Shown piece by piece: positions 23,960-61,291 of a stretch of DNA of 64,000 bases. The stretch lies in NCBI GenBank assembly GCA_026388495.1, contig JAPLJQ010000408.1, positions 1,939 to 65,938 of the forward strand, given 5' to 3'. The translations under genes were made by a program, and so were the position numbers. How positions within the stretch are numbered: position 1 is the stretch's first letter; every line of letters starts with the position of its first letter. The notes under the pieces were generated by a model. It was given only the letters and a program-made list of their open reading frames with translations, made no database searches and was not told the origin of the DNA. Source of the stretch: Deltaproteobacteria bacterium (lineage in GTDB: Bacteria > Desulfobacterota > Syntrophia > Syntrophales > UBA2185).

Positions 23960-25381
23960 TTACCTTTTTTTAACGACTTTCAGCAGCACGAGAAAACCTT
24001 TAAACATATACCAGAAAAGACGAGGATTCGAAATCACATCAATAAATTTTCTAATCAACACCGATGGTCTGAAATAAAATGCCCCTAACATTTCTGCCCT
24101 GGCCTTTTCCATATCCTTGCTGGTAAAGCCGTGAGGTACAAAAACGGTGCTCAGGGTATTCATCTTGCGCCAATCCTTTTCAAAAGCGCCATATTCCGAT
24201 GCATTTTCATAGAGGGCCGTTCCAGGAAAAGGCGTAAGCTGCATAACGGAGATGTCATCGAGGGGCAGTTTTAATACCAGCTCTTTTGTAAGTCTCAGCG
24301 ACTCTAATGTTTCTCCGGGAAAACCGACCATGAAGAAACCTTTTGTTTTCAGTCCCGCCTCTCGACTCCAACGAACGGCATCTTCCATGCGGGAAAGGTC
24401 TTCCCCCTTCTGCATGGCGTCGAGGATTCGTTGGTCTCCACTCTCTATGCCGTATGAGATATGCCAGCACCCGGCCTTTCTCATGAGGGCCAGCAACGCA
24501 GGCGTAACCCGATCAGCGCGGCCCAAACAGGACCAGGTCACATCAATTTTCGCTGCAATCAAGCGTTCACAGAATTCCGTGACCCATTTCCAGGCGATAA
24601 TAAACGTGTCGTCTTCAATCAGTATTTCTCTGACCCCATAATGAGACGCCAGATCCTTTATCAGGTTGACGGCATACGTGGGGCTGTACGAACGTACCTT
24701 GTTCCCGAAAACAGAACGGTCGCAGAACTGGCACTGATTGGGACATCCCCGGGTTAAAACAACAGAGGCACAGGGAAATCGATTCATCCTGGCCGGTGAC
24801 GGGTAGAAATCACCCGGGAATCCCCGAAAGAGGTTCCATGCCGGCAAAGGTAATTCATCAAGATTGTTAAGAAACGGGCGGCGAGGGTTTACAACGATGC
24901 GCTCTTTGACCTTCACTGCAGTGCCTGCAATAGATTCGGGCGCTGCCCCCGTTTCATCAACACCCCGGAGGATCTCGGCAAAGGTCACTTCCCCTTCGCC
25001 AATGACCGCCATGTCAAAATGGCTAAACTCGGACAGCGTCTCTTCAGGAAGTGCCGTTACATGGCAACCGCCGATGATGGTTATCGCCTTGTCATTCATC
25101 GCCTTGATGCGCTTGGCCAGTTCAGAGGATGCGACAATGCCGGATGTGGTCGAAGTGATACCCACGATATGGGGGTGATAATCAGCTATTTCGGCTACCG
25201 TCTGATCCACCGTCAGACAATGCGCGGCCGCATCAATAACGCGGACGTCCATCTTTTCCCATTTGGCAACAGCGCCCAGACACGCTAATGCATAAGAGGG
25301 TTCCGTATTCGCGGCACCGGAAAAATTTCCATATCTTTCCTGCAGCGTCAGGGGAGATGAAATGAGGGCAACGCGAAGCAT
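23960..25381 (-). CDS. B12-binding domain radical SAM protein
   Basis: 473 aa; N-terminal cobalamin-binding-like domain (HPHIVGITSTTS), cluster motif LTRGCPNQCQFCD (CxxxCxxC). Confidence 0.9.
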   Translation of the reverse strand: MLRVALISSPLTLQERYGNFSGAANTEPSYALACLGAVAKWEKMDVRVIDAAAHCLTVDQTVAEIADYHPHIVGITSTTSGIVASSELAKRIKAMNDKAITIIGGCHVTALPEETLSEFSHFDMAVIGEGEVTFAEILRGVDETGAAPESIAGTAVKVKERIVVNPRRPFLNNLDELPLPAWNLFRGFPGDFYPSPARMNRFPCASVVLTRGCPNQCQFCDRSVFGNKVRSYSPTYAVNLIKDLASHYGVREILIEDDTFIIAWKWVTEFCERLIAAKIDVTWSCLGRADRVTPALLALMRKAGCWHISYGIESGDQRILDAMQKGEDLSRMEDAVRWSREAGLKTKGFFMVGFPGETLESLRLTKELVLKLPLDDISVMQLTPFPGTALYENASEYGAFEKDWRKMNTLSTVFVPHGFTSKDMEKARAEMLGAFYFRPSVLIRKFIDVISNPRLFWYMFKGFLVLLKVVKKR

Positions 25382-25430
25382 GATTATTTCTCTTCCAGGC
25401 GCATCGCAATCTGCTGCGTAAGTTTTTTTA
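25382..25430 (-). repeat. 49-bp remnant/duplicate of the 3' end of the DUF2304 gene
   Basis: 41/49 identical to 26277-26325; still reads KKLTQQIAMRLEEK-stop vs KRLTQQIAMRMEEK-stop of the intact gene; abuts the radical SAM start codon. Confidence 0.8.
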
Positions 25431-25434
25431 GTGA

Positions 25435-25503
25435 AATAGGGGGTCAGAGCAACATTAACGTTACTCTTTTACGAGAGCATCAATATTACTCTACCCCCTA
25501 TTA
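25435..25503. repeat. family B repeat, copy 2 (short inverted-repeat element)
   Basis: AATAGGGGGTCAGAGCAACATTAA ... TTACTCTACCCCCTATT; imperfect terminal inverted repeats. Confidence 0.7.
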
Positions 25504-25532
25504 ATCCCGCTATTAATCACGAGAAGGTTGCC

Positions 25533-25850
25533 CTATGCGATCACTTGCAGCCCCTTTTTTTGAATAACCGTCAACAAACGCAGAGCAGGGCCACCCGGTT
25601 TTTTTACACCACGTTCCCAATCAGACACAAGATTTTTCGACACATTCAGGTATCGCGCAAATACAGGCTGAGAGATGCTCTCACGCTTCCGGATGAGCTT
25701 GATCTCTTCGGACGAAAGAACCCGCACCGGCGTCAGGCAAGCCTCATCGAACTCGCGCATTGTCTTCTTTTCGATAGCGCCGATCTCGTGCAGTGCCTCC
25801 ATAGTGCTGTGTATAGCGGCAAAAGCTTCACTTCGATATTTTTTCGCCAT
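25533..25850 (-). CDS. HTH (XRE-type) antitoxin/transcriptional regulator
   Basis: 105 aa; C-terminal HTH SQPVFARYLNVSKNLVSDWERGVKKPGGPALRLL; start overlaps the end of the upstream toxin reading frame. Confidence 0.8.
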   Translation of the reverse strand: MAKKYRSEAFAAIHSTMEALHEIGAIEKKTMREFDEACLTPVRVLSSEEIKLIRKRESISQPVFARYLNVSKNLVSDWERGVKKPGGPALRLLTVIQKKGLQVIA

Positions 25851-26217
25851 CGTTTTTTACCTCCTCAAGCCGGCTATTGTCTATGAGAACAGATGATTGG
25901 GAATCGGAAAGTGCCAAGACGTGCTTAGCCATTTTCTTGAACTGCTCCTCTTCATCTTCACGGATATTGGCCTAATCTCCTTTGGCAAACCCGTATACAA
26001 AAAACGCTTCCTCACCTCTGCGGAGCAGAATAATCGCCCGGTAGCCTTTCGATTTTCCCTGACCGGGCCGTGCGATGCGCTGTTTGATTACGCCACCGCC
26101 CAAATCGGCATCCACCTGAGAATTTTCAGCTCTTTGAACGGCCTCCCGAAGCACCTCATCGGAAATCTTTTCCTTTCGGGCAAAACGTGTGAACCAACTG
26201 TTCTTGAAAATTCTCAT
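25828..26217 (-). pseudogene. RelE/ParE-superfamily toxin interrupted by an in-frame TAG
   Basis: MRIFKNSWFTRFARKEKISDE...GQGKSKGYRAIILLRRGEEAFFVYGFAKGD-TAG(25971-25969)-ANIREDEEEQFKKMAKHVLALSDSQ... continues in the same frame to TGA at 25830-25828, overlapping the antitoxin ATG. Confidence 0.75.
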
Positions 26218-26276
26218 TCAACACACCATTTCATGGCGGCTTAATATATCACACTATGTATTATATCGCAAGTCAA

Positions 26277-26609
26277 TTATTTTTCTTCCATTCGCATGGC
26301 AATCTGCTGCGTCAGCCTTTTTATCTGTCGGCGCTGTATGGAAATGATGATGGAGAATTGCAGGCACATCAAGAACAATATCAGGATCGAAAAAAGAAAA
26401 AGCGTCGTAATGGGTGTCGCCACGTCTATTTGCCGTGAAAACCAGAGGAGCCAGTCATACTTGACAACGATCAGCGGGGCCATGATACCAACCGACAGCC
26501 AGAGCCAACAATATGAAATGTCAAGCCTCCCTTTCTGAATCAATCTTACAATCAACAAGAATAGAGCAAGACTGATCAACAGCATAATAAAATACTGCTT
26601 AGGGTACAT
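26277..26609 (-). CDS. DUF2304 family small membrane protein
   Basis: 110 aa, 3-4 TM, charged C-terminal tail; overlaps the stop of the upstream GT2, the usual GT2-DUF2304 pairing. Confidence 0.7.
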   Translation of the reverse strand: MYPKQYFIMLLISLALFLLIVRLIQKGRLDISYCWLWLSVGIMAPLIVVKYDWLLWFSRQIDVATPITTLFLFSILILFLMCLQFSIIISIQRRQIKRLTQQIAMRMEEK

Positions 26610-27333
26610 ACTGTTTCCACCTCCTTTGACTTAAAAAAACCATCACGATGGAAAGGATCATTTTGATGACATAATACAGCGGTTTTAATCCGGCATGCAT
26701 GGATTCGCCGCCGGAGCGCCCAAGCATGACCACGGGGACCTCCTTCACACGAAAACCTGCGTAATGCGCCATCAGTAAAACATCGGCATCCGGAAAGTCA
26801 TTGGGGAACTGGCCCCGCGAAAAAAGTTCAAAGGCTTTCCTGTTCAGACACTGAAAGCCCGATGTCGGATCGGTAATTTTATATCCAATAATCAAAGATA
26901 ATATCATTCCAAAAATTTTCTGCCCTGCTTTACGGACAAAGGATGTTTTGTAAGTACTAACTGAAGATAGATAGCGGCTTCCTATGACGATATCTGCCCT
27001 TCCGTCTAAAACAGGAGCAAGAATTTGCGGCACTTCATCGGGAAGATGCTGGCCATCGCCATCCATTTGGACAATGAATTCATACCCGTATTTTAAAGCA
27101 TAGAAATAACCCGTTTCCAAAGCGGCGCCGTAACCCAAATTTATCAGATGCGTAACGACATCGGCCCCGGCCCCAACGGATTCATTGCCCGTATCATCGG
27201 ATGAGCAGTCATTCACGACGAGTACCTTGGCTGACGGCAAGATGAGCTTTGCCGCCCTAATAATGTCTCCTACCCGTCCATGTTCATTATAGGCCGGGAT
27301 CACTACCAGAACTTTTTGATTGTCCCTGATCAT
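26599..27333 (-). CDS. glycosyltransferase family 2 (DPM1/polyprenyl-phosphate glycosyltransferase-like)
   Basis: 244 aa; VLVVIPAYNEHGRV, VVNDCSSDDT, MDGDGQH (DxD). Confidence 0.85.
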   Translation of the reverse strand: MIRDNQKVLVVIPAYNEHGRVGDIIRAAKLILPSAKVLVVNDCSSDDTGNESVGAGADVVTHLINLGYGAALETGYFYALKYGYEFIVQMDGDGQHLPDEVPQILAPVLDGRADIVIGSRYLSSVSTYKTSFVRKAGQKIFGMILSLIIGYKITDPTSGFQCLNRKAFELFSRGQFPNDFPDADVLLMAHYAGFRVKEVPVVMLGRSGGESMHAGLKPLYYVIKMILSIVMVFLSQRRWKQYVP

Positions 27334-27376: not shown

Positions 27377-28558
27377 TCAATTCTTCACACCCTCAATCCT
27401 CCTGAGAAGCATGGATGCAATCTCCTTAAGCGAGGGGTTGACATCCTTCTTCCTATTTTTATCTATTCTTTTAAGCAGATGAAAGAACTCTTCCGGTTTA
27501 TTTAAATCAAAATAGTAAACGTTATTCTCGCCGCCATTATCGGTGAAAATGTCAATTAACCCTGGCAACCTCGTAGCAATAACCGGTTTTTCACAAGCCA
27601 TGTATTGATATAATTTGCTAGGAAAAATGATGTCGGTAATTTTATTAGTGGCAAATGGGTTTATACATACATCGGCCAGATTTATATATTTAGGCAATTC
27701 GGAATAATTGATAAATCCTGTTAAGATTACAACATCGCTCAAATCGTTTTTTTCGATCATTTTTCTCAATAAATTCATCTGTTCACCATGCCCGACGATG
27801 ATGAACTTTATTTTTTTACGCTCCAGTGGATTATTGATCAGAAATCGAATTAAAACATCCAGACCGGAGAAATTATAAAGTGTGCCCGCAAACAGAACCA
27901 CTCGGTCGTTCTCTGCGATGCTGAATTTTCGAACAAGCTCCAAGTCCTTTGGCTGCGGGTGGAAAAGGTCTATATCGGAACCCGTAGGCAAGTATGAGGT
28001 GGTATTCGGGTTACCTCCCATCTCAACAACATATTTAGTCAGTTTGGGGGTAATGGCAGTTATTGATGAAACTTTTTTATAAACCAATCGTTCCATGACG
28101 TACGTCGGCAACGAAAGGATCTTGGATGGTACCAACTGGTGCGATACATCCAATGAACGAAAGTGAACCGGAATTTTATGTTTTTTTGCCCAATAAAGTG
28201 TTTGCAGACCATTGGTTGGGACCGAATACAGAACGATCCTCTCAATATTGTATTGCCTGATTATCTTGCCAATAATGAAGAAATACGAGAAAAAAGCCAG
28301 GAGGCGACTGATTCCAAAGATTTTAACGATCCCTGGCCTGATCAATGTTATGCCTTTTTCTTTATTGGATTTTCTGACATTTTGCAGACATTGAGTCTTC
28401 AGCGATCCTATATCAAAAATATTCTTTTTCTTCCAGTCCATAGGATAATCAACCACATAAACATTATGGCCCTGTGAAGCATAAATCTCCGGTATGATTT
28501 GAAACTCGAAAACAACCTTATTAATGTATTCGGTTTCGTGTACAAAAAGAATATTCAT
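27377..28558 (-). CDS. glycosyltransferase family 4 (GT-B)
   Basis: 393 aa; MNILFVHETEY N-terminus; C-terminal NPFATNKITDIIFPSKLYQYMACEKPVIAT. Confidence 0.8.
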   Translation of the reverse strand: MNILFVHETEYINKVVFEFQIIPEIYASQGHNVYVVDYPMDWKKKNIFDIGSLKTQCLQNVRKSNKEKGITLIRPGIVKIFGISRLLAFFSYFFIIGKIIRQYNIERIVLYSVPTNGLQTLYWAKKHKIPVHFRSLDVSHQLVPSKILSLPTYVMERLVYKKVSSITAITPKLTKYVVEMGGNPNTTSYLPTGSDIDLFHPQPKDLELVRKFSIAENDRVVLFAGTLYNFSGLDVLIRFLINNPLERKKIKFIIVGHGEQMNLLRKMIEKNDLSDVVILTGFINYSELPKYINLADVCINPFATNKITDIIFPSKLYQYMACEKPVIATRLPGLIDIFTDNGGENNVYYFDLNKPEEFFHLLKRIDKNRKKDVNPSLKEIASMLLRRIEGVKN

Positions 28559-28607
28559 AGGTATTTACCCGATTAACTTCAAAGTTGAAAAACACGTCTT
28601 AAACTGG

Positions 28608-29741
28608 TCAATCGGGCTTTCGCCATACCGTGCGGTTAATATAATCCGTGTAGCTGACAATTATTCGCAGGACTTTTTTAGAGACGTTGTCCGTGTCATA
28701 ATCCTGCACCAATCTAAACTGGCGTTTATCACTGGAATGTTGTTTGACCACTATATCAACAGACTCAAGGACCCTTTCGGCTTTAAGGCCGCACATAATT
28801 AGCGTGCCCTCATCCATACCCTCCGGCCTTTCATGCGCCTGCCGTATGGTAACCGCCGGAAAATTTAAGATGCTGGATTCTTCCGTTATTGTACCGCTGT
28901 CGGAGACCACGCAAAAAGCGTTCTGTTGGAGTTTGACATATTCGTAAAATCCCAGCGGTTTAAGAAAACTTATTCTCGGATCAAGATGGGCGACGTTCGT
29001 CTCTTCCAGCCTTTTCCTTGTCCTGGGATGCGTAGAGACGATAACCGGCTTATCGTACTTTTTCGCCAGGGCATTCACCGAGTCAAGAATGTCCCGGAAA
29101 TTCTCCTCGCTGTCCACGTTTTCCTCCCGGTGAGTACTCAGGACCAAATATCCCCCTTTTTTAAGCCCCAATCTCGACAGCACATCGGATTTCACTATCG
29201 CAGGCATATAGTGGTTCAGGACCTCTTTCATTGGGGAGCCCGTCTTGATGACTGTTTCAGGTCTCAATCCTTCGCTCAGGAGATACCTGCGGGCGTGCTC
29301 TGTCAGCGTCATGTTTATATCGCTTAGATGGTCCACTATCTTGCGGTTGAGCTCTTCGGGCACCCGCTGGTCAAACGAGCGGTTTCCGGCCTCCATGTGG
29401 AAAATTGGTATCTTGCGCCGTTTGGCGGGTATGACGGACAGACAGCTATTCGTGTCGCCGTAAAGCAAAACGGCGTCGGGTTTTTCTTTTTCCATGACTT
29501 CGTCGGCCTTCGCTATTATATTGCCGATAGTCTGTGCCAGCGAGTCGCCCACTGAATTAAGAAAATGGTCCGGCTTGCGGATCTCCATCTCCTTGAAAAA
29601 TAACTCATTAAGTTCATAGTCGTAATTCTGCCCTGTATGCACCAGCACGTGATTAAGGTGTTTTTCCAACTCGTACATCACACGGCTCAGCTTTATTATC
29701 TCCGGTCGAGTACCGACGATAGTCATCACTTTCAAAGGCAT
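28608..29741 (-). CDS. UDP-N-acetylglucosamine-type 2-epimerase, non-hydrolysing (WecB/FnlC/WbvD/CapG class)
   Basis: MTIVGTRPEIIKL, STHREEN, VSDSGTITEES; ATG at 29741 has AAGGAG 7 nt upstream (the track ORF starts 21 nt further up). Confidence 0.9.
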   Translation of the reverse strand: MPLKVMTIVGTRPEIIKLSRVMYELEKHLNHVLVHTGQNYDYELNELFFKEMEIRKPDHFLNSVGDSLAQTIGNIIAKADEVMEKEKPDAVLLYGDTNSCLSVIPAKRRKIPIFHMEAGNRSFDQRVPEELNRKIVDHLSDINMTLTEHARRYLLSEGLRPETVIKTGSPMKEVLNHYMPAIVKSDVLSRLGLKKGGYLVLSTHREENVDSEENFRDILDSVNALAKKYDKPVIVSTHPRTRKRLEETNVAHLDPRISFLKPLGFYEYVKLQQNAFCVVSDSGTITEESSILNFPAVTIRQAHERPEGMDEGTLIMCGLKAERVLESVDIVVKQHSSDKRQFRLVQDYDTDNVSKKVLRIIVSYTDYINRTVWRKPD

Positions 29742-29791
29742 GTCCGTTCTCCTTATATCCAATTATTCCAATTATTTCAGCAGTTCGCCCT

Positions 29792-30688
29792 TTACCTCCA
29801 TTGGTCGTAGGGTGTATGATCGGCAGCAATATCAAACATCATTTGCCGCCACGATGGGCACTTAAATCCCGTGGCGTCTATGAACTTGTCACCATTCAGG
29901 TTTCGCCTACATTCAAATGTATCGTCCGGCTCTATCTCGACGTCCATTTTATAGGCCTCTTTCATCAGGTTAAGCAATTCGTATTTGGAACACGTCTCAC
30001 TGGCAACATGGTAAAGCCCGTTCAAACCTGGAAATTTTTCTATCAGTTCGCACACCAGCGCGGCAAGGCGGTTCGTTGTAAGACCAGTGAAAAGCGCTTT
30101 GCAGAAGCCCTGCACATGTTTGCCGTTATGTGCCAGGAACCATTCCAGGAGTTCTGTGCCGTCGATGATCTCCCGACCTATAAAAGAAGACCTGAGAGTC
30201 AATGCACAAGGCGCCTCCACGTCACCAAGCATTTTTGTTATCCCATAAAGATCCTGAGCGTCAGGAGGGCTGTCCTCGTCGTAATTCCCTATCCTGCCGT
30301 CAAAAACGCAGACCGTACTGAAATGAATAAGACGGGCGCTGTTTTTAGTGCACCACGCCACAAGTATATGAGGGAGCAAGGCGTTGATGGCGATGTTGGA
30401 TAGTTTGTCTTCCGCTTCCCGGCTCCGTAGCGTCACGCCTGCACAATTTACGATAATCGAAGGGTGTATTTCCTCCAGGATAATTTTAAGCTGCCCGAAA
30501 TCCCGGAGATCAAGGTTGTCCACCACCGTTGGACCCTTAAAAAGGCCGCATTTTTCATAGTAGGATTTAGATTTTCTTATGGTGACATAGGTATCGGGAA
30601 ATTTCGCCGGCATAAGCTGCCAGAGCTTATGCCCCAGTGTGCCACCCCCCCCTAAGATAAGTATACGTTCTGCTTTATGCCCATTCAT
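29792..30688 (-). CDS. RmlD-like SDR reductase (WbvR-like 4-reductase candidate)
   Basis: 298 aa; ILILGGGGTLGHKL Rossmann; RmlD-sized rather than CapF/FnlB-sized (~370 aa); sits between the CapE-like and 2-epimerase genes. Confidence 0.7.
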   Translation of the reverse strand: MNGHKAERILILGGGGTLGHKLWQLMPAKFPDTYVTIRKSKSYYEKCGLFKGPTVVDNLDLRDFGQLKIILEEIHPSIIVNCAGVTLRSREAEDKLSNIAINALLPHILVAWCTKNSARLIHFSTVCVFDGRIGNYDEDSPPDAQDLYGITKMLGDVEAPCALTLRSSFIGREIIDGTELLEWFLAHNGKHVQGFCKALFTGLTTNRLAALVCELIEKFPGLNGLYHVASETCSKYELLNLMKEAYKMDVEIEPDDTFECRRNLNGDKFIDATGFKCPSWRQMMFDIAADHTPYDQWR

Positions 30689-30718
30689 TGAGTTGGAACA
30701 TTCCTCTTAAATCTGTAG

Positions 30719-31762
30719 TTATAAACGAGACGGTACATTTAAAATTATCTTACGCGTATCCAGAGCAGCCCTGACAAAGTCAAGTTTCAGCAGCAATGCA
30801 ATCAGACTATCCTCGGCAAGGCGGCGGGTATTATGAGAGTTGTAATCTTCCTGGCTGGAAACCTTGGTTTCACCCTCATTAAAATATAAGGAATAATTCA
30901 GATCCCGCACATCTGAAGAAATCCGGTAATATTTACCCATATCCTCGGCCTTTGCCATTTCTTCGCGGGTTAAAAGGGTTTCATATAACTTTTCCCCATG
31001 TCTGGTACCGATGATCCGGACCTCAGTCTTTGCATTAAAGATCCGTTTCAGTGCATTGGCCAGGGTCCCGATGGTTGCCGCCGGCGCCTTCTGGACAAAT
31101 ATATCCCCGGGATTTCCATGTTGAAACGCATAGACCACCAAATCCAGGGCGTCATCGATAGACATCATGAAGCGCGTCATATTCGGATCGGTCACCGTAA
31201 TGGGGGACTCGGATAGGATCTGGTTGATGAAGAACGGGATCACAGAGCCGCGCGAGCCCATGACATTCCCGTAACGGGTTCCACAGAAGATGGTACTTGA
31301 ATCCCCGTGAGCCCGTGCTTTGGCAATCATCATCTTTTCCATAAGCGCCTTGGACATGCCCATGGCATTGATGGGATAGACAGCCTTGTCCGTACTCAAG
31401 GCAATCATGTTTCTGACTCCGCATGCCAACGCTGCATTCATTACGTTTTCCGCACCCAGGCTATTCGTACGGACAGCTTCCAAGGGAAAGAACTCACAGG
31501 AGGGTACCTGTTTGAGTGCAGCGGCATTAAAAACCAGATCGACATTGATCATGGCCGCCAGAATGCTGTCGTAATCCCGGACATTCCCCAGGTAGAACTT
31601 CACCTTCGGATTCCGCAGTGCATTGCGCATCTCATCCTGTTTCTTTTCATCACGGGAAAAGATACGGATCTCTTTGATATCTGTTTCCAGAAAGCGGTTT
31701 AAAATAGCATTACCAAATGTGCCGGTGCCGCCTGTTATTAAAAGGATTTTGTTGTTAAACAT
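30719..31762 (-). CDS. UDP-GlcNAc 4,6-dehydratase/5-epimerase/3-epimerase (CapE/FnlA/WbvB type)
   Basis: 347 aa; ILLITGGTGTFGNAIL, AAALKQVPSCEFFP, INAMGMSKALMEK (Met-x3-Lys in place of Tyr-x3-Lys, CapE hallmark), RYGNVMGSRGSVIP. Confidence 0.9.
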   Translation of the reverse strand: MFNNKILLITGGTGTFGNAILNRFLETDIKEIRIFSRDEKKQDEMRNALRNPKVKFYLGNVRDYDSILAAMINVDLVFNAAALKQVPSCEFFPLEAVRTNSLGAENVMNAALACGVRNMIALSTDKAVYPINAMGMSKALMEKMMIAKARAHGDSSTIFCGTRYGNVMGSRGSVIPFFINQILSESPITVTDPNMTRFMMSIDDALDLVVYAFQHGNPGDIFVQKAPAATIGTLANALKRIFNAKTEVRIIGTRHGEKLYETLLTREEMAKAEDMGKYYRISSDVRDLNYSLYFNEGETKVSSQEDYNSHNTRRLAEDSLIALLLKLDFVRAALDTRKIILNVPSRL

Positions 31763-31787
31763 GAATGACTCCTTAAAGGTGTCAAAT

Positions 31788-31815
31788 GGGCTCAGAGTAA
31801 CATTAACCCCGACCC
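31788..31815. repeat. family B repeat core, copy 3
   Basis: GGGCTCAGAGTAACATTAACCCCGACCC; 18/19 match to 22887-22905; 26 bp upstream of the capE-like start codon. Confidence 0.65.
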
Positions 31816-31878
31816 TGCTATACTTGTGTCTCTCTGGGACGCCCCGCTTTACCCGGCCTGATCCCTATTATCATATAC

Positions 31879-42735: not shown

Positions 42736-42739
42736 ATAA

Positions 42740-53279: not shown

Positions 53280-53336
53280 TGTACGATATCTCACCCAACT
53301 TGTTTTTTTCGAACTTCATGTTCCTTAAGAGATAGA

Positions 53337-54332: not shown

Positions 54333-55940
54333 TTAGCACCTGCCATGAGATATAGCAGTCAGCCGATTACGGATTATCTGCACCAATAATTGCACATCGT
54401 TGCGTCTCAAGCCCAATATCTCCGGCTTAAAGTATACTGACGCAATAACTATCATCGTATATGTAATACCAGATAAAATAAAATCATATAACCCACCATC
54501 TACCAATAAATAATTCGCAGCAAGCGATGACATTGCAGCAAGACTCGTAAAAAAAAGGAGACATCCGATCTGGTGCACCAGATAATACAAATAGCTGAGA
54601 TGGAGCAATTTTGCATTAAAGTATAATTGCACATTGACAGCTACGACATTTATTACAAGCATTTTGATTGCCAATCCAGTGGCGCCGGCATTTAAACCAT
54701 ACTTATCAACGGGAGCGATCATGAAATAGGTAATAGGCAGGCTAACCAGCGAAAAGATTACGGAGATGTTCCTATATAGTTTGGTTCGCCCCGCGGCGTA
54801 AAAGAGAGAACTCGTCAATTGTCCGTACGTCTGATGAATAGGGTACATCGCCATGATGGCAACGGCCATCATGCTTCCCCGAAAGGGACTGCCCCCGATG
54901 ATGCGCACGACATTCTGCGCCTGAACCATGACGAAGCACGAAAAAAACGCAGCTACAGCATACAACATAGGGATATAACGATTAAAAAGCCGCCCCATTT
55001 CGTTCAGGTCGTTAGTGCCATGAAGGATTGAATATTCTCTCATCAACAGTGGCGTCATGGCACCGGTAAAAAGAAAACAGATGGCTCCTATCTGATAGGA
55101 TAGGCTGTAAAAGCCCTGTTGTACACTTCCTCCGTAGTATTGCAACAACCATCTGTCAAATATACCCTCTACTAATACGACTATAGCAATAACAAAGATC
55201 GGATGGCTATAATTAAAAAAATCCTTCAGGTAATTTTTTGCTTTTTCCCATGATAGCCTCAGGTTCTCTTTGGATAAGTGGATGTTTCTGCTGATTATTC
55301 CTATGAACGCAATTATTAGAAAAAAAAGGATAAAATAATGATAGAAAAAGAATTGGGTTAGGTAAAACTGATGGTATAAATAAAGTATAACAATAACCCC
55401 AAGGCCTAAAATCCTCTGAAGCATTCGCACCTTTTCTGCAGGTACCGTTATGCCATAAGCATCCGCAATATCTCCTAATATCTGAACAAACCAATTGAGA
55501 AGTCCCCAGCCTGCCGCCAGATAAACATAAACCAGACTCTGCCCCAGCCAGATCGTTTCATGTACACCAGAGAAATGTACTAACGCTACGAAACCAATAA
55601 CGAAAAGAAAAACAAAAGCGATATAATACAAATAAAAAGAGATTAAAGGGTATTCTCTGGGGCGGCGCGAAATGTTCGTATAGAAACAGGTGGAGGTTCC
55701 CATATCTAAAAAACCGACGACCTGGGTAAAAAAATTAGTAAGGAAATTAAAATCCCCATACACCTTGGGACCCAATCCCCGCGGAATTATCATTTGTGTG
55801 ATAATACTGATGATAAGACCGAGAAAACTGGAGTAAAGTTTAAAAAAATATCTTTTATTAAGAGAATCATTGTGTCCGAGGTTCCGATGAATATCGGGAT
55901 TATCGAAATTGCTGTCTTCGCCTTTACCGATAAACGTCAT
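54333..55940 (-). CDS. Wzx-like polysaccharide flippase (MOP superfamily)
   Basis: 535 aa, about 14 TM; N-terminal KLYSSFLGLIISIITQMIIPRGLGPKVYGDFNF typical of the polysaccharide biosynthesis protein family. Confidence 0.75.
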   Translation of the reverse strand: MTFIGKGEDSNFDNPDIHRNLGHNDSLNKRYFFKLYSSFLGLIISIITQMIIPRGLGPKVYGDFNFLTNFFTQVVGFLDMGTSTCFYTNISRRPREYPLISFYLYYIAFVFLFVIGFVALVHFSGVHETIWLGQSLVYVYLAAGWGLLNWFVQILGDIADAYGITVPAEKVRMLQRILGLGVIVILYLYHQFYLTQFFFYHYFILFFLIIAFIGIISRNIHLSKENLRLSWEKAKNYLKDFFNYSHPIFVIAIVVLVEGIFDRWLLQYYGGSVQQGFYSLSYQIGAICFLFTGAMTPLLMREYSILHGTNDLNEMGRLFNRYIPMLYAVAAFFSCFVMVQAQNVVRIIGGSPFRGSMMAVAIMAMYPIHQTYGQLTSSLFYAAGRTKLYRNISVIFSLVSLPITYFMIAPVDKYGLNAGATGLAIKMLVINVVAVNVQLYFNAKLLHLSYLYYLVHQIGCLLFFTSLAAMSSLAANYLLVDGGLYDFILSGITYTMIVIASVYFKPEILGLRRNDVQLLVQIIRNRLTAISHGRC

Positions 55941-57124
55941 TTAATATTTTTTATCCTGTTTGCCAGGATTTGCCAGGATTGTAATTCTTCCGTGCCATCT
56001 TTCTTAATATAGTCGTTTCTGTAAGCACGATATTTTTTTACATCCACATACAATTCTTTTTGCAGATTAAACTCAAAGTGATAATCTAGATTATGGACCT
56101 TTTTCCCGAAAAATCCTGCCATCCAGTCAGGCGTCGGATCTTCTGCCCAGCCTTCATTATATTTATCTGTCGTAACGATAATAATAGGTTTTTCATACAG
56201 AACAGCAAAATTGACGGCCGTACTCGTATGCAAAATCACAAAACCAGACGTTCTCACTAACTCCGATGTCTTACCACGTATGACAGGCCTGCCACCAAAA
56301 TAGTCAGGAAGGTCTTCATAGCGGGAACGTGGATGCGCGGCAATGAAGATTTTGAATCTGTTCTTACTTTCAAGATAATCGAAGAATCTGCAAAGCTTCG
56401 GATAATATTCATCCGGGGTTACAGGTGTACTGAGTCCACTGTAAGCATAGTCGGGATGAAAAGGAAGATATTCGTCAATAAAAACTCCCGTATTGATATC
56501 AACGGGTCCCAGCTTATCTGCTTCCGTTAAATAAGTATCGTAATCGTAACTATGCGCCCATACAACATTCGAGGTCGCCGTTACAGCCAATCCCGGCGTC
56601 CCGTATTTCTCGCCGCGAGCTAATATATAATCGGCAGGTTTCACATTTAACATTTGATATGGAATTAAATATAATATGCTATTTATCAAGCCACTCAAAT
56701 TCAATTGTTTAAACTTATTAGAAATACTCTCTGAAAACACAACCTTCGAACGGTCAACTCTCGGAAGTGCCATCGCATCAACAGAATATTTAATATTTTG
56801 CTTGGAAAACATTCTGTGAATACTGAGGGAGTAAAAAGCGTAATGAATTAAAGATACAACGAAGCAGGTATCGTCCAACCTCGCAACTGCAGTGATCGCT
56901 TCTTTTTTGGTTTGGAATAAGCGCCAGTTGTCACAATTGAAGACCGGCGGCTTCACTGTGCTTTTATATTCACCCGAAGCAATAAAAGGCGTAAAGTCCC
57001 ATACCTCAACGTCAAATCCATTATCCTTAAAAGTTTTGACACCAAATCGTCGATAGTCGCTTTCGTTGAAATATGCCTCGACGAAATAGACAATCTTGCT
57101 AATGGGGAATGATTTATTAATCAT
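55937..57124 (-). CDS. hypothetical protein, putative GT-B-like transferase with HP motif
   Basis: 395 aa from MINKSFPISKIVYF; C-terminal IFIAAHPRSRYED...TSELVRTSGFVILHTSTAVNFAVLYEKPIIIVT parallels the C-terminus of the 38111-39901 product. Confidence 0.5.
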   Translation of the reverse strand: MINKSFPISKIVYFVEAYFNESDYRRFGVKTFKDNGFDVEVWDFTPFIASGEYKSTVKPPVFNCDNWRLFQTKKEAITAVARLDDTCFVVSLIHYAFYSLSIHRMFSKQNIKYSVDAMALPRVDRSKVVFSESISNKFKQLNLSGLINSILYLIPYQMLNVKPADYILARGEKYGTPGLAVTATSNVVWAHSYDYDTYLTEADKLGPVDINTGVFIDEYLPFHPDYAYSGLSTPVTPDEYYPKLCRFFDYLESKNRFKIFIAAHPRSRYEDLPDYFGGRPVIRGKTSELVRTSGFVILHTSTAVNFAVLYEKPIIIVTTDKYNEGWAEDPTPDWMAGFFGKKVHNLDYHFEFNLQKELYVDVKKYRAYRNDYIKKDGTEELQSWQILANRIKNIK

Positions 57125-58343
57125 TAACCCCATCCATATTGACCGTATGGCGTAATTTCCAATCACCATTCACCCTGGCCCAGAGATGGGGCGAGCGGCC
57201 CTGATCGCAGAGTTCAATGAATCTCTCCGGCTTAATATCTAGGTAGTTTAAAATTTCTACGAAATACCGGTCGGGAAATTCTCCATCGAATTTTTTAACG
57301 AGGGCGCATCCCTCTTCTCTTGTCAAATGATTGTTCCGTATTTCCATGGAAGCATCTTCAGTCGTTCTTCCGATGCCAAATTTGATAAAGGTTGTATAGT
57401 AATGGAGGTCGTCAATTTTATCATCGATACTATTGTACTTGCTGTATGTACCCTGGGTCCGGAACGGCCTTGCCTGATACCCTGTATTTTCAACCGCGTA
57501 ATAGTAGGCCTCCTGAGGCGTCCATTTTAGATAATATCCGAGGTAATGAACATCGATGCTGTGCTTTTCCAGTTCCTCGTAACGCGGTGGCAGGAATACC
57601 ATTAAATCTACCAGATCGATATTATACTTTTCAATCAGATGTGGAATGGAGACACCGCCGAGGAAAACGTCATTCAGATCTCTTATGCTGAAAAAAGATT
57701 TATCTCTAAGGGATGTGGTATTATCAGCAATGGGGTTCCCGTATTCAGCCTCATTTTCTCCATAGAAAATTAATGGGATATCGTATTTTATAGCAATCTT
57801 TGGTGCAATGTTCTTCTGTCCCAGAATAAAGGTATGGAAAGGATGTAGAAGGTTTTCAATCGATAGTTTGGTCATAAGCTTCATAACCCTGCCATTGGGC
57901 TTAAATGAAATGTTGTCAACCCCCCCCACTTCGATCCAGTTGCGGAAGTTACTATAACCATAATCGGTATAAAGAAGAGGTGACCAAGTGACTGTCAAAG
58001 GATGCATGCCATATTTATATTTCAGTACATGTGCTGCATAAGCGCTGTCCTTTCCGCCGCTTCCCGGGACGACACAGTCATAATTTCCGTCATTTTTCCT
58101 GTGTTTATCCAACAGTCTAATCAATTCGCCTTCTCTTTTTTTCCAGTCGATCTTATCCTTAATTTCGGCAAAACGGCATGCATCACAGATACCTTCTTCA
58201 TCAATGTGCATGGTGGTTTTTTTGCTGGCTTGCGTATGCTTGAACTCGACCGTGGAAGCAGGCCTCTGGTTGGAGGTAACGCAACGACCGCAGAATACTA
58301 CTCTCTCAGGCAATCCGTATTTTGCTTCCAATTTTTCTTTCAT
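57117..58343 (-). CDS. N-acetyl sugar amidotransferase (WbuX/PseA/PtmG/WbpG class, PP-loop ATPase)
   Basis: 408 aa; N-terminal Cys4 (CGRC...CDAC); PP-loop VVPGSGGKDS; KWTPQEAYYYAVENTGY; NHLTREEG. Confidence 0.85.
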   Translation of the reverse strand: MKEKLEAKYGLPERVVFCGRCVTSNQRPASTVEFKHTQASKKTTMHIDEEGICDACRFAEIKDKIDWKKREGELIRLLDKHRKNDGNYDCVVPGSGGKDSAYAAHVLKYKYGMHPLTVTWSPLLYTDYGYSNFRNWIEVGGVDNISFKPNGRVMKLMTKLSIENLLHPFHTFILGQKNIAPKIAIKYDIPLIFYGENEAEYGNPIADNTTSLRDKSFFSIRDLNDVFLGGVSIPHLIEKYNIDLVDLMVFLPPRYEELEKHSIDVHYLGYYLKWTPQEAYYYAVENTGYQARPFRTQGTYSKYNSIDDKIDDLHYYTTFIKFGIGRTTEDASMEIRNNHLTREEGCALVKKFDGEFPDRYFVEILNYLDIKPERFIELCDQGRSPHLWARVNGDWKLRHTVNMDGVND

Positions 58344-59003
58344 CTATAGATTTTCTCCGTTTTGTTTTTTTATTGATAAAGCCCAATTTCTGTAAATATT
58401 CAAACCTTTCATCCCGCTTTTTTCAGGGTGATATTGTGCTGCAAATACATTATTTCTAAGCAGGCTCGAACAATACTCTGTGGAATGGTATTTCGTATGA
58501 GACAAGACAACCTTTATATCCGATGGTTCAACATAATATGAATGGATAAAATACATGAACTCCCCACTTTTCAAACCTCTTAATGGAGATGCCGTCCATG
58601 AATCTTCTGAAGCAGGAAAAATCTGGTTCCAGCCTATCTGGGGGACTTTAATACGAATATCGGTATGACCTTGAAATTTTTTCACTGTACCCTCAATAAC
58701 GTTTAATCCCTTGTGCCTTCCGAACTCTTCGCTTTCGCTCAAAAGAAGCTGCATGCCGAGACAGATCCCCATGAATTTTCGGCCACTGGCGATAAAATCC
58801 TTGATTGGTTCGATCAGATCAAGAATCCGTAAATTCACCATCGCTTCCCCAAAAGCGCCGACACCAGGCAGTATCATTGCACCCGCACATAGAAGTTGTT
58901 TTTTATCGGACGTAATTATCGCATTCAGGCCAACCGAACAGCAGGCATGATGAACACTAAAGAGGTTGCACATACCATAATCGACAATCGCAACTGTCTT
59001 CAT
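58344..59003 (-). CDS. HisH-like glutamine amidotransferase subunit (WbuY-like)
   Basis: MKTVAIVDYGMCNLFSV; nucleophile elbow GICLGMQLL; QYHPEKS (His/Glu of the triad). Confidence 0.9.
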   Translation of the reverse strand: MKTVAIVDYGMCNLFSVHHACCSVGLNAIITSDKKQLLCAGAMILPGVGAFGEAMVNLRILDLIEPIKDFIASGRKFMGICLGMQLLLSESEEFGRHKGLNVIEGTVKKFQGHTDIRIKVPQIGWNQIFPASEDSWTASPLRGLKSGEFMYFIHSYYVEPSDIKVVLSHTKYHSTEYCSSLLRNNVFAAQYHPEKSGMKGLNIYRNWALSIKKQNGENL

Positions 59004-59013
59004 CTGTATGTCT

Positions 59014-59874
59014 TTATTCAAAGTCATACCGGCAAGATATACCATTACTATTCAAATAGTCTTTTATTATCTTTAGATTTAAAGCATTTACGACATTATA
59101 CCTTTTCCCGCTCTTCAGAAATTCAACATTCCCCTCTTCACCGGATTCGACCTTAACAGGGTTGTGTTTAATGAAGTCGTAGTGCAGTATACTGGAAACA
59201 GCAACGGCATCGGCTTCACCCTCAAGAATTACCTGCTTCAGGTGTTCGAGATTACCGGCGCCTCCATGAGCGATCACCGGAATGGAAACCATTCTAGAGA
59301 TCGCCTGCGTCAGCTCGATATCGAATCCGAGACCGGTGCCTTCACAGTCCACGGATGTGATAACGATTTCTCCCGCACCGAGCTCTTCAACTTTTTTTGC
59401 CCATTCCGCAACATTTACACCGGTATGCTGGCGTCCATTATCAATATACGCGAGATAAGATCCATCCGGTTGCTTGATGGCCTCGATTGTGACGACGATA
59501 GTTGATGAACCGAAAACTCTCGATGCTTCTCTTATGATCTGCGGATTTTTTATAGCGGCAGTATTTAGAGAAACCTTATCTGCTCCAGCCTTCAAGACGC
59601 TCTTGATATCATCGATCGTCCTCAATCCACCTCCAACGGTAAGGGGGATGAATATTTCTCTTGCCGTAAGGGATATAATGTCATGAAGGCTATTTCTATC
59701 ATACAGACTGGCAACAACATCCATATACATTAATTCATCAGCCCCTGCTTCATAGTAATAACGAGCAAATTGTTCCGGCCTTCCCAGCACTCTAAGGCCT
59801 TCGAGATGGATACCTTTAACCAAGTTTGGCCCTTTAATGTCTAAACGAGGAATTATGCGAATATTTTGTTGCAT
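59014..59874 (-). CDS. HisF-like cyclase/synthase subunit (WbuZ-like)
   Basis: 286 aa; IIPRLDIKG, GADKVSLNTAA, VIAHGGAG; TIM-barrel HisF pattern with a C-terminal extension. Confidence 0.9.
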   Translation of the reverse strand: MQQNIRIIPRLDIKGPNLVKGIHLEGLRVLGRPEQFARYYYEAGADELMYMDVVASLYDRNSLHDIISLTAREIFIPLTVGGGLRTIDDIKSVLKAGADKVSLNTAAIKNPQIIREASRVFGSSTIVVTIEAIKQPDGSYLAYIDNGRQHTGVNVAEWAKKVEELGAGEIVITSVDCEGTGLGFDIELTQAISRMVSIPVIAHGGAGNLEHLKQVILEGEADAVAVSSILHYDFIKHNPVKVESGEEGNVEFLKSGKRYNVVNALNLKIIKDYLNSNGISCRYDFE

Positions 59875-59902
59875 ATTGGATGATTAAAAGGGAAGGGGGC
59901 CA

Positions 59903-61291
59903 TCAGGTTTGCCTGAACCCCCTGAAGCTGCTGTCTCTTTCCAAGTATAACCGCTTCATTTGCTCTTCATATGACGAAAACTTTCTTTTCAAATAGTTTT
60001 GCAGGAGAATGGAATTTGCCTCAAAAAGACACTGGTGCACATCATCATCAGTAATGTCTGTGAAATTAATCGATATCAAGTCGGAGTTGATGTGTTTTGT
60101 TTCATAGAAATCTTCACAATCTTTCAACAAACCTCTTTCGATTGCATAATAATACAGGGGTGATCCGGGATAAGGCGTAACCGGACGAATGGTGCGCAGA
60201 TGTGTCCCATCATCGTATTTCAGCAGAAAATCGACTCCTTTTTTTAAGATTTCTTTATCTTCTCCTATATTTCCGAAAATGATATTGTATCCGGGACTGA
60301 TACCGGCAGTGATCGTCTCCTCAATTCCGCGAATAATTTGTTTGGTTGTCAATGCCTTATTCATGTTCTTCAATATTCGATCATCAAGTGATTCGATACC
60401 GTAGTTAATAAAAACGCACCCGGCCTGTTTCATCAAGTGAAGTACATTTTTTCGCGCGTAATTCAGTCTTCCATTGCAATCCCATTTAATACTTATTTTA
60501 TGCCTGATAAAATCATTGCAAAGGCTGATGGTCCTTTCCTTAGAAGACATAAGGAGTTCATCGCCAAATGTGATATGGGTGATACCATAATCCAACTTTA
60601 GGAGTTTGATTTCTTCAATAATGCTATCATTGCTTCGAGGGCGGAAACCTTCATCCATCCGGTAACAGAAGTTACATCTGAACGTACAGCCTCTACCCGA
60701 AAGCATTGGCATAACAAAATCAGAATTTGTACAGTGTGGCATTCGAAAGAGTCGATAATAATTAATGGGGAATAATTCGTAAGCGGGGAGCGGGATGGTG
60801 TCTATGTCTTCGATTAATGGCCGGCGCTCATTTATTATGCACCGCTCGCCTTCTCTATAAGAAATACCTTTAACTTGATCCAGGCTACGCCTGCTTTTCA
60901 ATGCCTCCAGCAATTCAATAACCGTAACTTCTCCTTCTCCCATTACGATCGCATCTGCACCGGTCTTCTTGAGGAAATATTCTGGTTCAGGTGTTGGACC
61001 GTGGCCACCGATAAGGTAAAAGGGTCGTTCTTTTGAGTGATTGATCGCTTCAGATATCTGAAGTGCCTTATGATATTGATAGTACCCTCCTATAAAGCTT
61101 AGGCCGACAATATCAAAAAAATTTTTATCAAGATAGTTTTTTAAGTGGCTTTCGGGATAATGGTGCACATCCTGATTGTAAATCTCAACATCGTATCCTT
61201 CTTTTCGGAGAATCGCAGCGATATAAGCCAATCCCTGCGGAAACCAATGGATGTAAGAATCATTATCATAGACTATTAGCAATACCTTCAT
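59903..61291 (-). CDS. B12-binding domain radical SAM protein
   Basis: 462 aa; N-terminal FDIVGLSFIGG cobalamin-domain-like; SGRGCTFRCNFC. Confidence 0.9.
   Translation of the reverse strand: MKVLLIVYDNDSYIHWFPQGLAYIAAILRKEGYDVEIYNQDVHHYPESHLKNYLDKNFFDIVGLSFIGGYYQYHKALQISEAINHSKERPFYLIGGHGPTPEPEYFLKKTGADAIVMGEGEVTVIELLEALKSRRSLDQVKGISYREGERCIINERRPLIEDIDTIPLPAYELFPINYYRLFRMPHCTNSDFVMPMLSGRGCTFRCNFCYRMDEGFRPRSNDSIIEEIKLLKLDYGITHITFGDELLMSSKERTISLCNDFIRHKISIKWDCNGRLNYARKNVLHLMKQAGCVFINYGIESLDDRILKNMNKALTTKQIIRGIEETITAGISPGYNIIFGNIGEDKEILKKGVDFLLKYDDGTHLRTIRPVTPYPGSPLYYYAIERGLLKDCEDFYETKHINSDLISINFTDITDDDVHQCLFEANSILLQNYLKRKFSSYEEQMKRLYLERDSSFRGFRQT

Follow-up and report, generated by a model that had tools for sequence, protein, structure and literature searches.

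Three proteins that combine an N-terminal B12-binding domain with a radical S-adenosylmethionine (SAM) core, here termed R1, R2 and R3, are encoded amid glycan genes in a stretch of 64,000 nucleotides from a Deltaproteobacteria bacterium of the Syntrophales (contig JAPLJQ010000408.1; in its full length referred to as the window). They share the domain content and fold of cobalamin-dependent radical SAM enzymes, yet form three discrete groups of orthologues, each of which keeps its own partner genes in conserved synteny, and the R3 family is a previously undescribed companion of legionaminic-acid-type sugar pathways in anaerobes. We are confident that the three are glycan-tailoring enzymes in three separate modules. 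The fuller account, in which they are class-B-type radical SAM sugar tailors, each being the hallmark of a separate, horizontally mobile module, appears probable, and C-methylation as the specific modification is a tentative assignment, somewhat short of an even chance.

23960-25381, minus strand: R1, B12-binding and radical SAM protein, 473 amino acids (aa)
51267-52697, minus strand: R2, B12-binding and radical SAM protein, 476 aa
59903-61291, minus strand: R3, B12-binding and radical SAM protein, 462 aa

Three enzyme families rather than recent paralogues

The three reading frames are intact and lie exactly where the initial annotation had placed them, and the N-terminal segments that it had described as cobalamin-domain-like are recognized by Pfam as B12-binding domains (PF02310; E = 3.3e-21 for R1, 5.9e-25 for R2 and 1.8e-17 for R3). 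These are followed by Radical_SAM domains (PF04055; E = 1.3e-25, 4.8e-24 and 3.2e-20, respectively), with all matches exceeding the gathering scores. The CxxxCxxC motifs quoted earlier (GCPNQCQFC, GCPYNCIFC and GCTFRCNFC) are present, align with one another within the radical SAM domain and are invariant across 49 aligned sequences of the three families. Two cysteines outside this motif, C271 and C305 in R1, are invariant in the same 49 sequences.

Since R1, R2 and R3 are only 27-30% identical in pairwise alignments, their description as 'paralogues' holds at the superfamily level but not in the sense of recent duplicates. Recent paralogy, or service in a single pathway, is ruled out by this low identity together with the separate orthologue groups and the non-overlapping partner genes. 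Similarly, the 'one glycan locus' in which they had been placed is a mosaic of several juxtaposed units, and the three genes mark three separate modules instead of serving one shared pathway. Several B12-radical SAM genes are also found in single glycan loci elsewhere (two each in L009, L012 and L176, four in L011), and because this clustering recurs, their grouping in the window is not a chance juxtaposition. In L011, which belongs to a metagenome-assembled genome (MAG) of the Thermodesulfovibrionales, the four genes are spread over 5103-20954; one of them is an R3 orthologue, and a SPASM radical SAM gene, glycosyltransferase family 2 (GT2) genes, DegT and an ABC exporter are found in the same locus.

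R3 accompanies nonulosonic acid biosynthesis

In the window, R3 is embedded in a set of genes (module C) that point to the biosynthesis of a nonulosonic acid (NulO), a sialic-acid-like sugar.

63539-63997, minus strand: CBS plus NTP_transferase protein (PtmE-like), C-terminal part, running off the window end
62863-63552, minus strand: NulO cytidylyltransferase (Pfam CTP_transf_3; PseF model 165.6 bits, cut-off 205.7)
61622-62782, minus strand: WbuX-family N-acetyl sugar amidotransferase (TIGR03573, 350 bits, cut-off 203)
61349-61597, minus strand: zinc-ribbon-like open reading frame (ORF) of 82 aa with two CxxC pairs, directly upstream of R3
59014-59874, minus strand: HisF-like protein (Pfam His_biosynth)
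58344-59045, minus strand: HisH-like protein (Pfam GATase)
57117-58343, minus strand: second WbuX-family amidotransferase (TIGR03573, 346 bits, cut-off 203)
55937-57169, minus strand: soluble 410-aa protein without a family, with weak GT-B-like hints
54333-55940, minus strand: Wzx-like flippase (weak Wzx and Polysacc_synt matches; nine transmembrane (TM) segments)

The WbuX, HisH-like and HisF-like genes around R3 make up an acetamidino-sugar module. Of a legionaminic-type cluster, the window itself contains the cytidylyltransferase, which scores below the PseF cut-off, and the truncated PtmE-like gene. A Logan contig whose overlap with the window end is identical (L179) completes the latter to 353 aa and shows a NeuC-type 2-epimerase upstream of it, immediately beyond position 64000, where any further genes of such a cluster would also have to lie. 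L010 and most other R3 loci have the full NulO gene set, i.e. cytidylyltransferase, NeuB, NeuC, PtmE-like protein, 4,6-dehydratase, aminotransferase and N-acetyltransferase. In two Nitrospirota/Thermodesulfovibrionales loci (L020 and L056), a homologue of the 82-aa ORF (46-52% identity) likewise lies directly upstream of R3. The 410-aa protein co-occurs with R3 and Wzx in six loci, and together with Wzx it is found downstream of R3 in L016, L039, L049 and L088.

The R3 family is both widespread and strongly conserved. All of the best 120 database clusters share at least 69% identity with R3, their length being 462 aa in nearly every case, and a genome scan yielded 80 orthologues in named genomes (61-73% identity) from Desulfobacterota, Nitrospirota, Omnitrophota, Planctomycetota (including anammox genera), Elusimicrobiota, Firmicutes, Campylobacterota, candidate-phyla bacteria and a Woesearchaeote. 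Among themselves the orthologues are 55-98% identical (median 65%), as compared with at most 35% identity to other B12 radical SAM genes in the same loci.

For a survey of their neighbours, ORFs were called in all loci and clustered, clusters were named by the precomputed Pfam labels of L010, and neighbours were counted in the 41 R3 loci flanked by 8 kb or more on each side. A NulO cytidylyltransferase and/or NeuB is found in 38 of these 41 loci (cytidylyltransferase in 35, NeuB in 34), along with a NeuC-like epimerase (31), a 4,6-dehydratase or epimerase (27), a PtmE-like protein (26), a DegT aminotransferase (26) and PglD (18), whereas R1-type loci, which served as a control, contain the cytidylyltransferase in 1/82 and NeuB in 2/82 cases. 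When all R3 loci are considered, the cytidylyltransferase family is present in 64/80. WbuX, HisH or HisF occur in 13-15 of the 41 well-flanked loci, and HisF-like and HisH-like proteins co-occur with WbuX in 18-22 of the R3 loci. Seven Firmicutes loci (L046, L047, L061, L072, L075, L081 and L085) are flagellin glycosylation islands with Maf proteins (MptE-like plus Maf_flag10_N) and up to four flagellin genes.

Because the canonical NulO pathway genes are all present, R3 represents an addition to this pathway and not a replacement of one of its steps. Its being an extra step, its conservation, which exceeds that of the neighbouring cytidylyltransferases (median 41% identity to that of the window, versus a pairwise median of 65% for R3), and the differing acceptors served, i.e. 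Wzx-type glycans and flagellins, together indicate that it works at the monosaccharide or nucleotide-sugar stage. R3, encoded between the CMP (cytidine monophosphate)-NulO synthetase and the WbuX/HisF/HisH unit, would be an add-on enzyme of a legionaminic-acid-type pathway, most likely editing the free or nucleotide-linked nine-carbon sugar before its transfer, and a single R3 family may serve both Wzx-type glycan loci and flagellin glycosylation islands.

The closest known counterpart of this setting is the CMP-legionaminic acid pathway of Campylobacter, which comprises LegB/C/H/G/I/F and PtmE, with acetamidino groups formed by PseA/WbuX together with HisH/HisF homologues. The same gene families surround the R3 orthologues, and the window shares with it the PtmE-like protein, the cytidylyltransferase, WbuX and the HisF-like and HisH-like proteins, with the NeuC-like epimerase just outside. 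In contrast to the Campylobacter pathway, the R3 loci of anaerobes contain R3 as an extra, highly conserved gene, and we know of no described legionaminic acid pathway with a radical SAM step. A CMP-linked substrate would have a parallel in Fom3 of fosfomycin biosynthesis, a B12 radical SAM methylase with a cytidylylated substrate. The cytidylyltransferase adjoining R3 in most loci is compatible with such a substrate; Fom3 itself, which is among the class members covered by a recent review (PMC12931638), acts on a phosphonate, however, and the CMP handle is suggested for R3 by analogy only.

R1 and R2 lie near candidate polyprenyl-phosphate glycosyltransferases

R1 lies downstream of a gene pair of the GacI/GacJ type (module A).

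26599-27333, minus strand: GT2 of 244 aa (Pfam Glycos_transf_2), candidate GacI/PpgS-type polyprenyl-phosphate N-acetylhexosamine (HexNAc) synthase
26277-26609, minus strand: small DUF2304 membrane protein (GacJ/Rv3632-like), 110 aa, three TM segments (Pfam annotation of an identical Logan contig)
25972-26217, minus strand: RelE toxin (Pfam RelE)
25533-25850, minus strand: helix-turn-helix (HTH) antitoxin (Pfam HTH_3)
23168-23956, minus strand: DUF218/ElyC-like envelope protein with two N-terminal TM segments (Pfam DUF218; ElyC 198 bits, cut-off 205)

What defines the pair is a GT2 gene adjoining a DUF2304 gene with three TM segments. The best NCBIfam match of the GT2 is PpgS, with 95.4 bits against a cut-off of 370, followed by AglJ and a dolichyl-phosphate (Dol-P)-hexose transferase, and its closest PDB sequences are the Dol-P-mannose (Dol-P-Man) synthase 5mlz and ArnC; judged by these scores, it is a relative of the PpgS family. 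DUF2304 proteins such as GacJ and Rv3632 bind and stimulate GacI and PpgS, which synthesize N-acetylglucosamine-phosphate-undecaprenol and N-acetylgalactosamine-phosphate-polyprenol, respectively (bioRxiv 10.1101/180810).

In the window, a RelE/HTH cassette separates DUF2304 from R1. It is bracketed by a 48-nucleotide (nt) direct repeat (25383-25430 and 26276-26323, 85% identity), whose copy before R1 is a remnant of the 3' end of DUF2304 and reproduces a TAA-2 nt-ATG junction. Precisely this junction is found in the Syntrophales locus L012, where DUF2304 and R1 are uninterrupted, so that the two genes were ancestrally translationally coupled and the cassette is a later insertion. The DUF218/ElyC-like gene, which starts 3 nt past the R1 stop codon, also follows the R1 orthologues in L012, L096 and L097. 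Among 16 orthologous R1 loci (at least 56% identity, upstream DNA included), 14 have a GT2 of the 244-aa type and/or DUF2304 upstream of R1, directly abutting it in nine; an Anaerolineae genome has just a carbamoyltransferase, GT2, DUF2304 and R1, beside uppS and cdsA. Polytopic proteins with a tetratricopeptide repeat tail occur in nine R1 loci. In the reverse control, DUF2304 was found in 0/82 R3 loci. The nearest named relatives of R1 come from Syntrophales and Syntrophorhabdaceae MAGs (75-77% identity), with metagenomic relatives reaching up to 87%. The GacI/GacJ-type pair would produce undecaprenyl-phosphate-HexNAc, and R1, working with this pair, probably modifies the undecaprenyl-phosphate-linked monosaccharide or its UDP (uridine diphosphate) precursor.

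R2 is part of a block with a second GT2, several methyltransferases and a further radical SAM protein (module B).

53337-54311, minus strand: GT2 of 324 aa with two C-terminal TM segments, candidate AglJ/GtrB/ArnC-like polyprenyl-phosphate glycosyltransferase
52713-53294, minus strand: class I methyltransferase (Methyltransf_23), kept in L176 (53%) and L009 (48%)
50118-51218, minus strand: SPASM radical SAM protein, 366 aa (Pfam Radical_SAM plus SPASM)
49117-50112, minus strand: class I methyltransferase, 59% identical in L176
48442-49065, minus strand: class I methyltransferase, 63% identical in L009
46591-48429, minus strand: polytopic membrane protein of 612 aa, candidate GT-C-type transferase (at least nine TM segments plus a soluble C-terminus)

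This SPASM gene is the single one in the window, as had been noted, and the three methyltransferases of the block belong to eight of class I that are confirmed here (at 17601, 18590, 39904, 40698, which is of the FkbM type, 43817, 48442, 49117 and 52713), the earlier count having been at least eight. The SPASM protein reaches the cut-off of none of the curated families; it is 62% identical and syntenic in the metagenome locus L176, where the block is syntenic (44-68% identity) and an R3 orthologue is encoded as well, together with WbuX genes. Homologous to that of module A, the GT2 has AglJ, PpgS, Dol-P-Man synthase and ArnC as its closest relatives and is found beside R2 relatives in L176 (61%), L009 (69%) and L177 (26%). 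A polytopic protein stands beside every R2 relative examined; no recognizable GT-C family was detected for the 612-aa protein in Pfam or NCBIfam, where it, like the 410-aa protein and a 596-aa protein described below, has no match even at E <=5, and its homologue in L176 (44% identity) has a weak DUF2079 match. Module B is partly kept in L177 and in a Planctomycetes MAG (L009: R2, GT2 and two methyltransferases), and the neighbourhoods of more distant R2 relatives (48-51%), in Geobacter sp. AOG2 and L178, retain glycosyltransferases, a methyltransferase and polytopic proteins. No further R2 contexts were found among the R1 and R3 loci, where the highest identity is 36%; the relatives of R2 number roughly 4,000 overall.

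By this gene content, R2, the polyprenyl-phosphate GT2, the three class I methyltransferases and the SPASM enzyme may jointly build a heavily modified lipid-linked sugar. More generally, R1 and R2 would modify the monosaccharide that the adjacent GT2 links to polyprenyl phosphate, or the nucleotide precursor of this sugar, and the flipped product would then be used by a membrane transferase; in module B, the polytopic GT-C-like protein could pass the sugar to a glycan outside the cytoplasm. Glycan decoration via a polyprenyl-phosphate-linked monosaccharide is the common principle of the GacI/GacJ/GacK/GacL, PpgS/Rv3632, ArnC/ArnD/ArnT and GtrA/B/C systems, and ArnD provides a precedent for the editing of a lipid-linked sugar ahead of flipping. 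Modules A and B share with these systems a GT2 synthase, to which module A adds DUF2304 and module B the candidate polytopic transferase. They differ in that their GT2s do not reach the PpgS, AglJ and ArnC models and in the presence of a radical SAM enzyme, which to our knowledge none of these systems has.

A role outside glycan synthesis, in which R1, R2 and R3 would be radical SAM enzymes for peptides, lipids or cofactors that happen to be encoded in a variable genomic island, might be read from the mosaic nature of the region with its toxin-antitoxin pairs, repeats and shifts in guanine-cytosine (GC) content, and from public annotations that label relatives as 'anaerobic Mg-protoporphyrin cyclase' or 'YgiQ'. 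It is contradicted by the synteny statistics, with family-specific glycan partners being kept across phyla and absent in the reciprocal controls. Moreover, gene spacing around R1, R2 and R3 is operon-like (3-48 nt), and the window annotation contains no precursor peptide, hopanoid or chlorophyll genes. We therefore consider such a role highly improbable and continue with R1, R2 and R3 as glycan-tailoring enzymes.

Fold and predicted cobalamin binding

An important question is whether these enzymes use cobalamin. R1, R2 and R3 all have the class I architecture with a Rossmann-type B12 domain N-terminal to the radical SAM domain (PMC12931638). AlphaFold2 models of R1 and R3 (predicted local distance difference test scores of 93.3 and 89.5, respectively) match the cobalamin-bound structures of TsrM, OxsB, MgmA, CysS and TokK over more than 400 columns (Foldseek, probability 1.0), with the matches of R1 comprising AprD4, MgmA, TsrM, OxsB and TokK. 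At the sequence level, the best PDB match for all three is the radical SAM core of AprD4 (6fd2), followed by MgmA/QCMT (9ccb), TokK, OxsB, TsrM and CysS, and the B12 domain of R2 aligns with those of TokK, OxsB and CysS. The absence of a cobalamin-binding fold, which the initial annotation had named as grounds for giving up its proposal, is thus not what the models show. This discriminates little, however, since AprD4 has a related N-terminal domain and binds no cobalamin, so that the fold alone cannot prove binding, and since cobalamin binders and AprD4 are both matched with probability 1.0, so that the search cannot separate them. Besides AprD4, ArsL also has the related fold without cobalamin (PMC12931638).

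More informative is a profile built from 49 members of the R1, R2 and R3 families and aligned to the solved structures. It spans the N-terminal domain of cobalamin-bound QCMT, OxsB, TokK, TsrM and CysS, including the GGxH..P and GEGE motifs, both of which are kept in R1, R2 and R3, whereas on AprD4 it covers the radical SAM core only (E = 1.6e-51), with 2.7 bits for the N-terminus. Because the profile aligns N-terminally with the cobalamin-bound structures and not with AprD4, cobalamin binding by R1, R2 and R3 is likely, as predicted from sequence.

The same comparison bears on the possibility that one or more of the three are cobalamin-independent dehydratases like AprD4, removing a hydroxyl or amino group that neighbours a hydroxyl and thereby generating extra deoxy positions. 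AprD4 is a radical SAM 1,2-diol dehydratase of apramycin biosynthesis. Its aminoglycoside sugar substrate, its similar length and three-part architecture, its position as the closest solved structure in sequence and the highest TM-scores (0.75-0.80, with the R1 and R3 models) all recall the enzymes studied here, for which a sugar substrate is likewise proposed, and AprD4 itself was formerly taken for a B12 enzyme. Yet the resemblance is confined to the radical SAM core, its N-terminal domain differing from the profile, and the NCBIfam AprD4 model (NF033070) gives 98.9, 134.4 and 72.4 bits for R1, R2 and R3 against a cut-off of 500. Also, PF02310 matches are strong, the N-terminal motifs do not vary within or between the three families, and legionaminic acid offers no remaining vicinal diol. 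Dehydration of this kind is hence an improbable explanation, and cobalamin-type enzymes remain our preferred assignment.

C-methylation and alternative radical chemistry

We infer for R1, R2 and R3 the use of cobalamin and sugar substrates, on which they could act as follows. A 5'-deoxyadenosyl radical would take a hydrogen off an unactivated sugar carbon, to which, most probably, methylcobalamin would then donate a methyl group, yielding a C-methyl sugar. The models for such a reaction are GenK, GenD1 (GntE) and MoeK5, cobalamin-dependent radical SAM sugar C-methyltransferases of gentamicin and moenomycin biosynthesis (PMC12931638). Compared by description only, these have in common with R1, R2 and R3 the N-terminal B12 domain followed by the radical SAM core and, as proposed here, a carbohydrate carbon as a substrate beyond the reach of ordinary SAM methyltransferases. 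Unlike these enzymes of actinomycete antibiotic pathways, however, R1, R2 and R3 are located in the surface-glycan modules of anaerobes.

Curated families leave room for other reactions, as none of the 25-41 NCBIfam matches per protein reaches its cut-off. At the top of the ranking are BchE (TIGR02026; 175.5, 211.3 and 131.8 bits for R1, R2 and R3, cut-off 481.35) and HpnJ (TIGR03471; 187.1, 200.5 and 126 bits, cut-off 577.6), with models for P- and C-methyltransferases, AprD4 and other enzymes below. The principal alternative is therefore that the modules and substrates are those described above but the radical chemistry is not methylating, i.e. a rearrangement, ring contraction, epimerization, oxidation or cyclization with cobalamin as an optional electron sink. 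Precedents are HpnJ acting on hopanoid-linked glucosamine, OxsB on the sugar ring of a nucleotide and BchE in a cyclization, and 4-epi- and 8-epi-legionaminic acids exist whose biosynthesis is not fully known. The two additional invariant cysteines could donate hydrogen in such reactions. HpnJ, which combines a B12 domain with a radical SAM core and turns hopanoid-linked glucosamine into a cyclitol ether, is also the top match of R1, which like HpnJ lies near a GT2 that loads a lipid with a sugar, so that both may use an amino sugar that a nearby glycosyltransferase gene product has anchored to a lipid. On the other hand, HpnJ is non-methylating and its lipid differs from the undecaprenyl phosphate expected for R1, the BchE and HpnJ scores amount to roughly one third of the family cut-offs, and neither bch nor hpn genes are found around R1, R2 and R3 in the window annotation. 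The methyltransferases surrounding R2 suggest a methyl-rich product. The non-methylating enzymes fall into the largest and unresolved group of the superfamily, while every group with a characterized member includes C-methyltransferases (PMC12931638). Overall, non-methylating chemistry appears unlikely, though it has to be taken seriously, and methyl transfer remains the reaction that we tentatively propose.

Several points weigh against the account given here. It is built on sequence, models and synteny, with substrates, products and cofactor being predicted. The curated matches ranked first are to the non-methylases BchE and HpnJ, the structural comparison ranked first is to the cobalamin-free AprD4, and the sequences of B12 radical SAM enzymes have no feature by which methylases could be recognized (PMC12931638). 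At the position that corresponds to the lower-axial Trp76 of TokK, hydrophobic residues are not found throughout (S80 in R1, F76 in R2 and the G69/Y70 loop in R3), the mapping of this TokK/TsrM residue being ambiguous at 16-22% identity. Neither a cobalamin riboswitch nor any other Rfam match and no cob or btu genes are present within the 64-kb window. Finally, no NulO gene lies within 10 kb in three of the R3 loci (L011, L042 and L065), and the context of R2 comprises six loci only, which is thinner than for R1 and R3 and includes a Geobacter locus (L007) without GT2.

Relation to the literature and potential significance

The earlier statement that enzymes of this kind are rarely assigned roles in O-antigen or capsule loci is in line with the literature: a full-text search that covered few subscription journals found no work linking radical SAM/B12 enzymes with O-antigen, polysaccharide, legionaminic, pseudaminic or nonulosonic acids, which, because of this coverage, is not proof of absence. 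In a 2026 review of the characterized class members, the words glycan and polysaccharide do not occur, and the sugar-directed members belong to antibiotic (GenK, GenD1, MoeK5) or nucleoside (OxsB) pathways only (PMC12931638). The same review counts more than 80,000 sequences of cobalamin-dependent radical SAM enzymes, with the largest groups having no known function. One paper reports phase-variable SPASM-type radical SAM genes in Campylobacter fetus, with no function given. The anaerobic host that had been proposed also fits, because the relatives of all three families come almost entirely from lineages that we know as anaerobic and the nearest named relatives of R1 from Syntrophales and Syntrophorhabdaceae.

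Our data thus place a known enzyme architecture in three uncharacterized, conserved glycan-tailoring contexts, of which the linkage of R3 to NulO biosynthesis is the most striking and the easiest to test. The window and about 170 related loci jointly provide testable substrate hypotheses for three large groups, i.e. a NulO for R3 and lipid-linked monosaccharides for R1 and R2. In its boldest and still doubtful form, our proposal would make R3 the mark of an unrecognized cobalamin-dependent branch of legionaminic acid biosynthesis, with a new C-alkylated or otherwise radical-edited NulO on flagellins and lipopolysaccharide-like glycans, and R1 and R2 the first radical SAM editors of undecaprenyl-phosphate-linked sugars before flipping. 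Such a NulO branch may be widespread in anaerobic bacteria, candidate-phyla bacteria and some archaea. Should legionaminic acid indeed be what R3 edits, then sulfate reducers, syntrophs, anammox bacteria, Omnitrophota, Elusimicrobia and others would commonly display a new sialic-acid-like sugar on their surfaces and flagella, with a bearing on phage receptors, immune mimicry and glycan biomarkers, and surface-glycan structure would be tied to the availability of cobalamin in anoxic communities. Cultured carriers, i.e. Desulfoscipio geothermicus DSM 3669, Desulfobacter curvatus DSM 3379, Heliobacterium chlorum DSM 3682, Geomonas sp. Red32 and Wukongibacter baidiensis, allow a direct test.

Mosaic structure of the region

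At the larger scale, the window is composed of the following regions.

5377-21353: Wzm/Wzt ABC-transporter type region, GC content about 50%, with glycosyltransferases, an acyltransferase, a carbamoyltransferase (14533-16401) and two methyltransferases
21400-23100: toxin-antitoxin and repeat stretch encoding a PIN toxin-antitoxin pair and an Lcl_C protein, with a hairpin and short repeats
23168-27333: R1 module
27377-35973: FnlA/B/C-like genes and glycosyltransferases
36241-64000: low-GC region (36-44%) with three CTP_transf_3 genes, the Wzx-like flippase, R2 and R3

The GC content falls in steps, being about 60% at 1-4 kb, about 50% at 4-34 kb and 36-44% at 34-64 kb, which suggests that glycan regions of different origin have been placed side by side. 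In the flank with 60% GC, two ORFs of 561 and 298 aa (1522-4502) belong to no Pfam or NCBIfam family. The Wzm/Wzt exporter, whose Wzt has a C-terminal glycan-binding domain (Wzt_C), adjoins the methyltransferases at 17601-18593 and 18590-19333 (stretch 17601-21353), a layout typical of chain-terminator-controlled export of O-polysaccharides. In the stretch that follows, a PIN-domain toxin (21565-21951) overlaps its antitoxin (21948-22196), and a perfect hairpin with 27-nt arms (22296-22352) lies after this pair. Short GGGGTCAGAG-containing repeats are located at 22864-23057, 24617-24638 and 25437-25506.

The low-GC region begins with an unusual fusion of 586 aa (36241-38001), in which a CTP_transf_3 cytidylyltransferase is joined to a D-2-hydroxyacid (phosphoglycerate-type) dehydrogenase, and also encodes the soluble 596-aa protein (38111-39901), which shows weak GT-B-like hints. 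A set of genes at 41650-46508 may represent a further pathway for a cytidylylated sugar; it consists of a truncated-looking CTP_transf_3 gene (45729-46508), an epimerase, a methyltransferase, a GFO/IDH/MocA oxidoreductase and a HisC/CobD-like aminotransferase (41650-42735), the last of which we discounted as evidence for cobalamin. The same cytidylyltransferase (59%) and aminotransferase (48%) are kept in L176 (14139-16949), beside another SPASM radical SAM gene. Between the R1 module and this region, a trio of FnlA-, FnlB- and FnlC-like genes (28608-31762; Polysacc_synt_2, RmlD-like and UDP-N-acetylglucosamine 2-epimerase) predicts the synthesis of UDP-N-acetyl-L-fucosamine, and given this trio, one of the two WbuX proteins might make the acetamidino derivative of L-fucosamine (L-FucNAm) rather than an acetamidino NulO.

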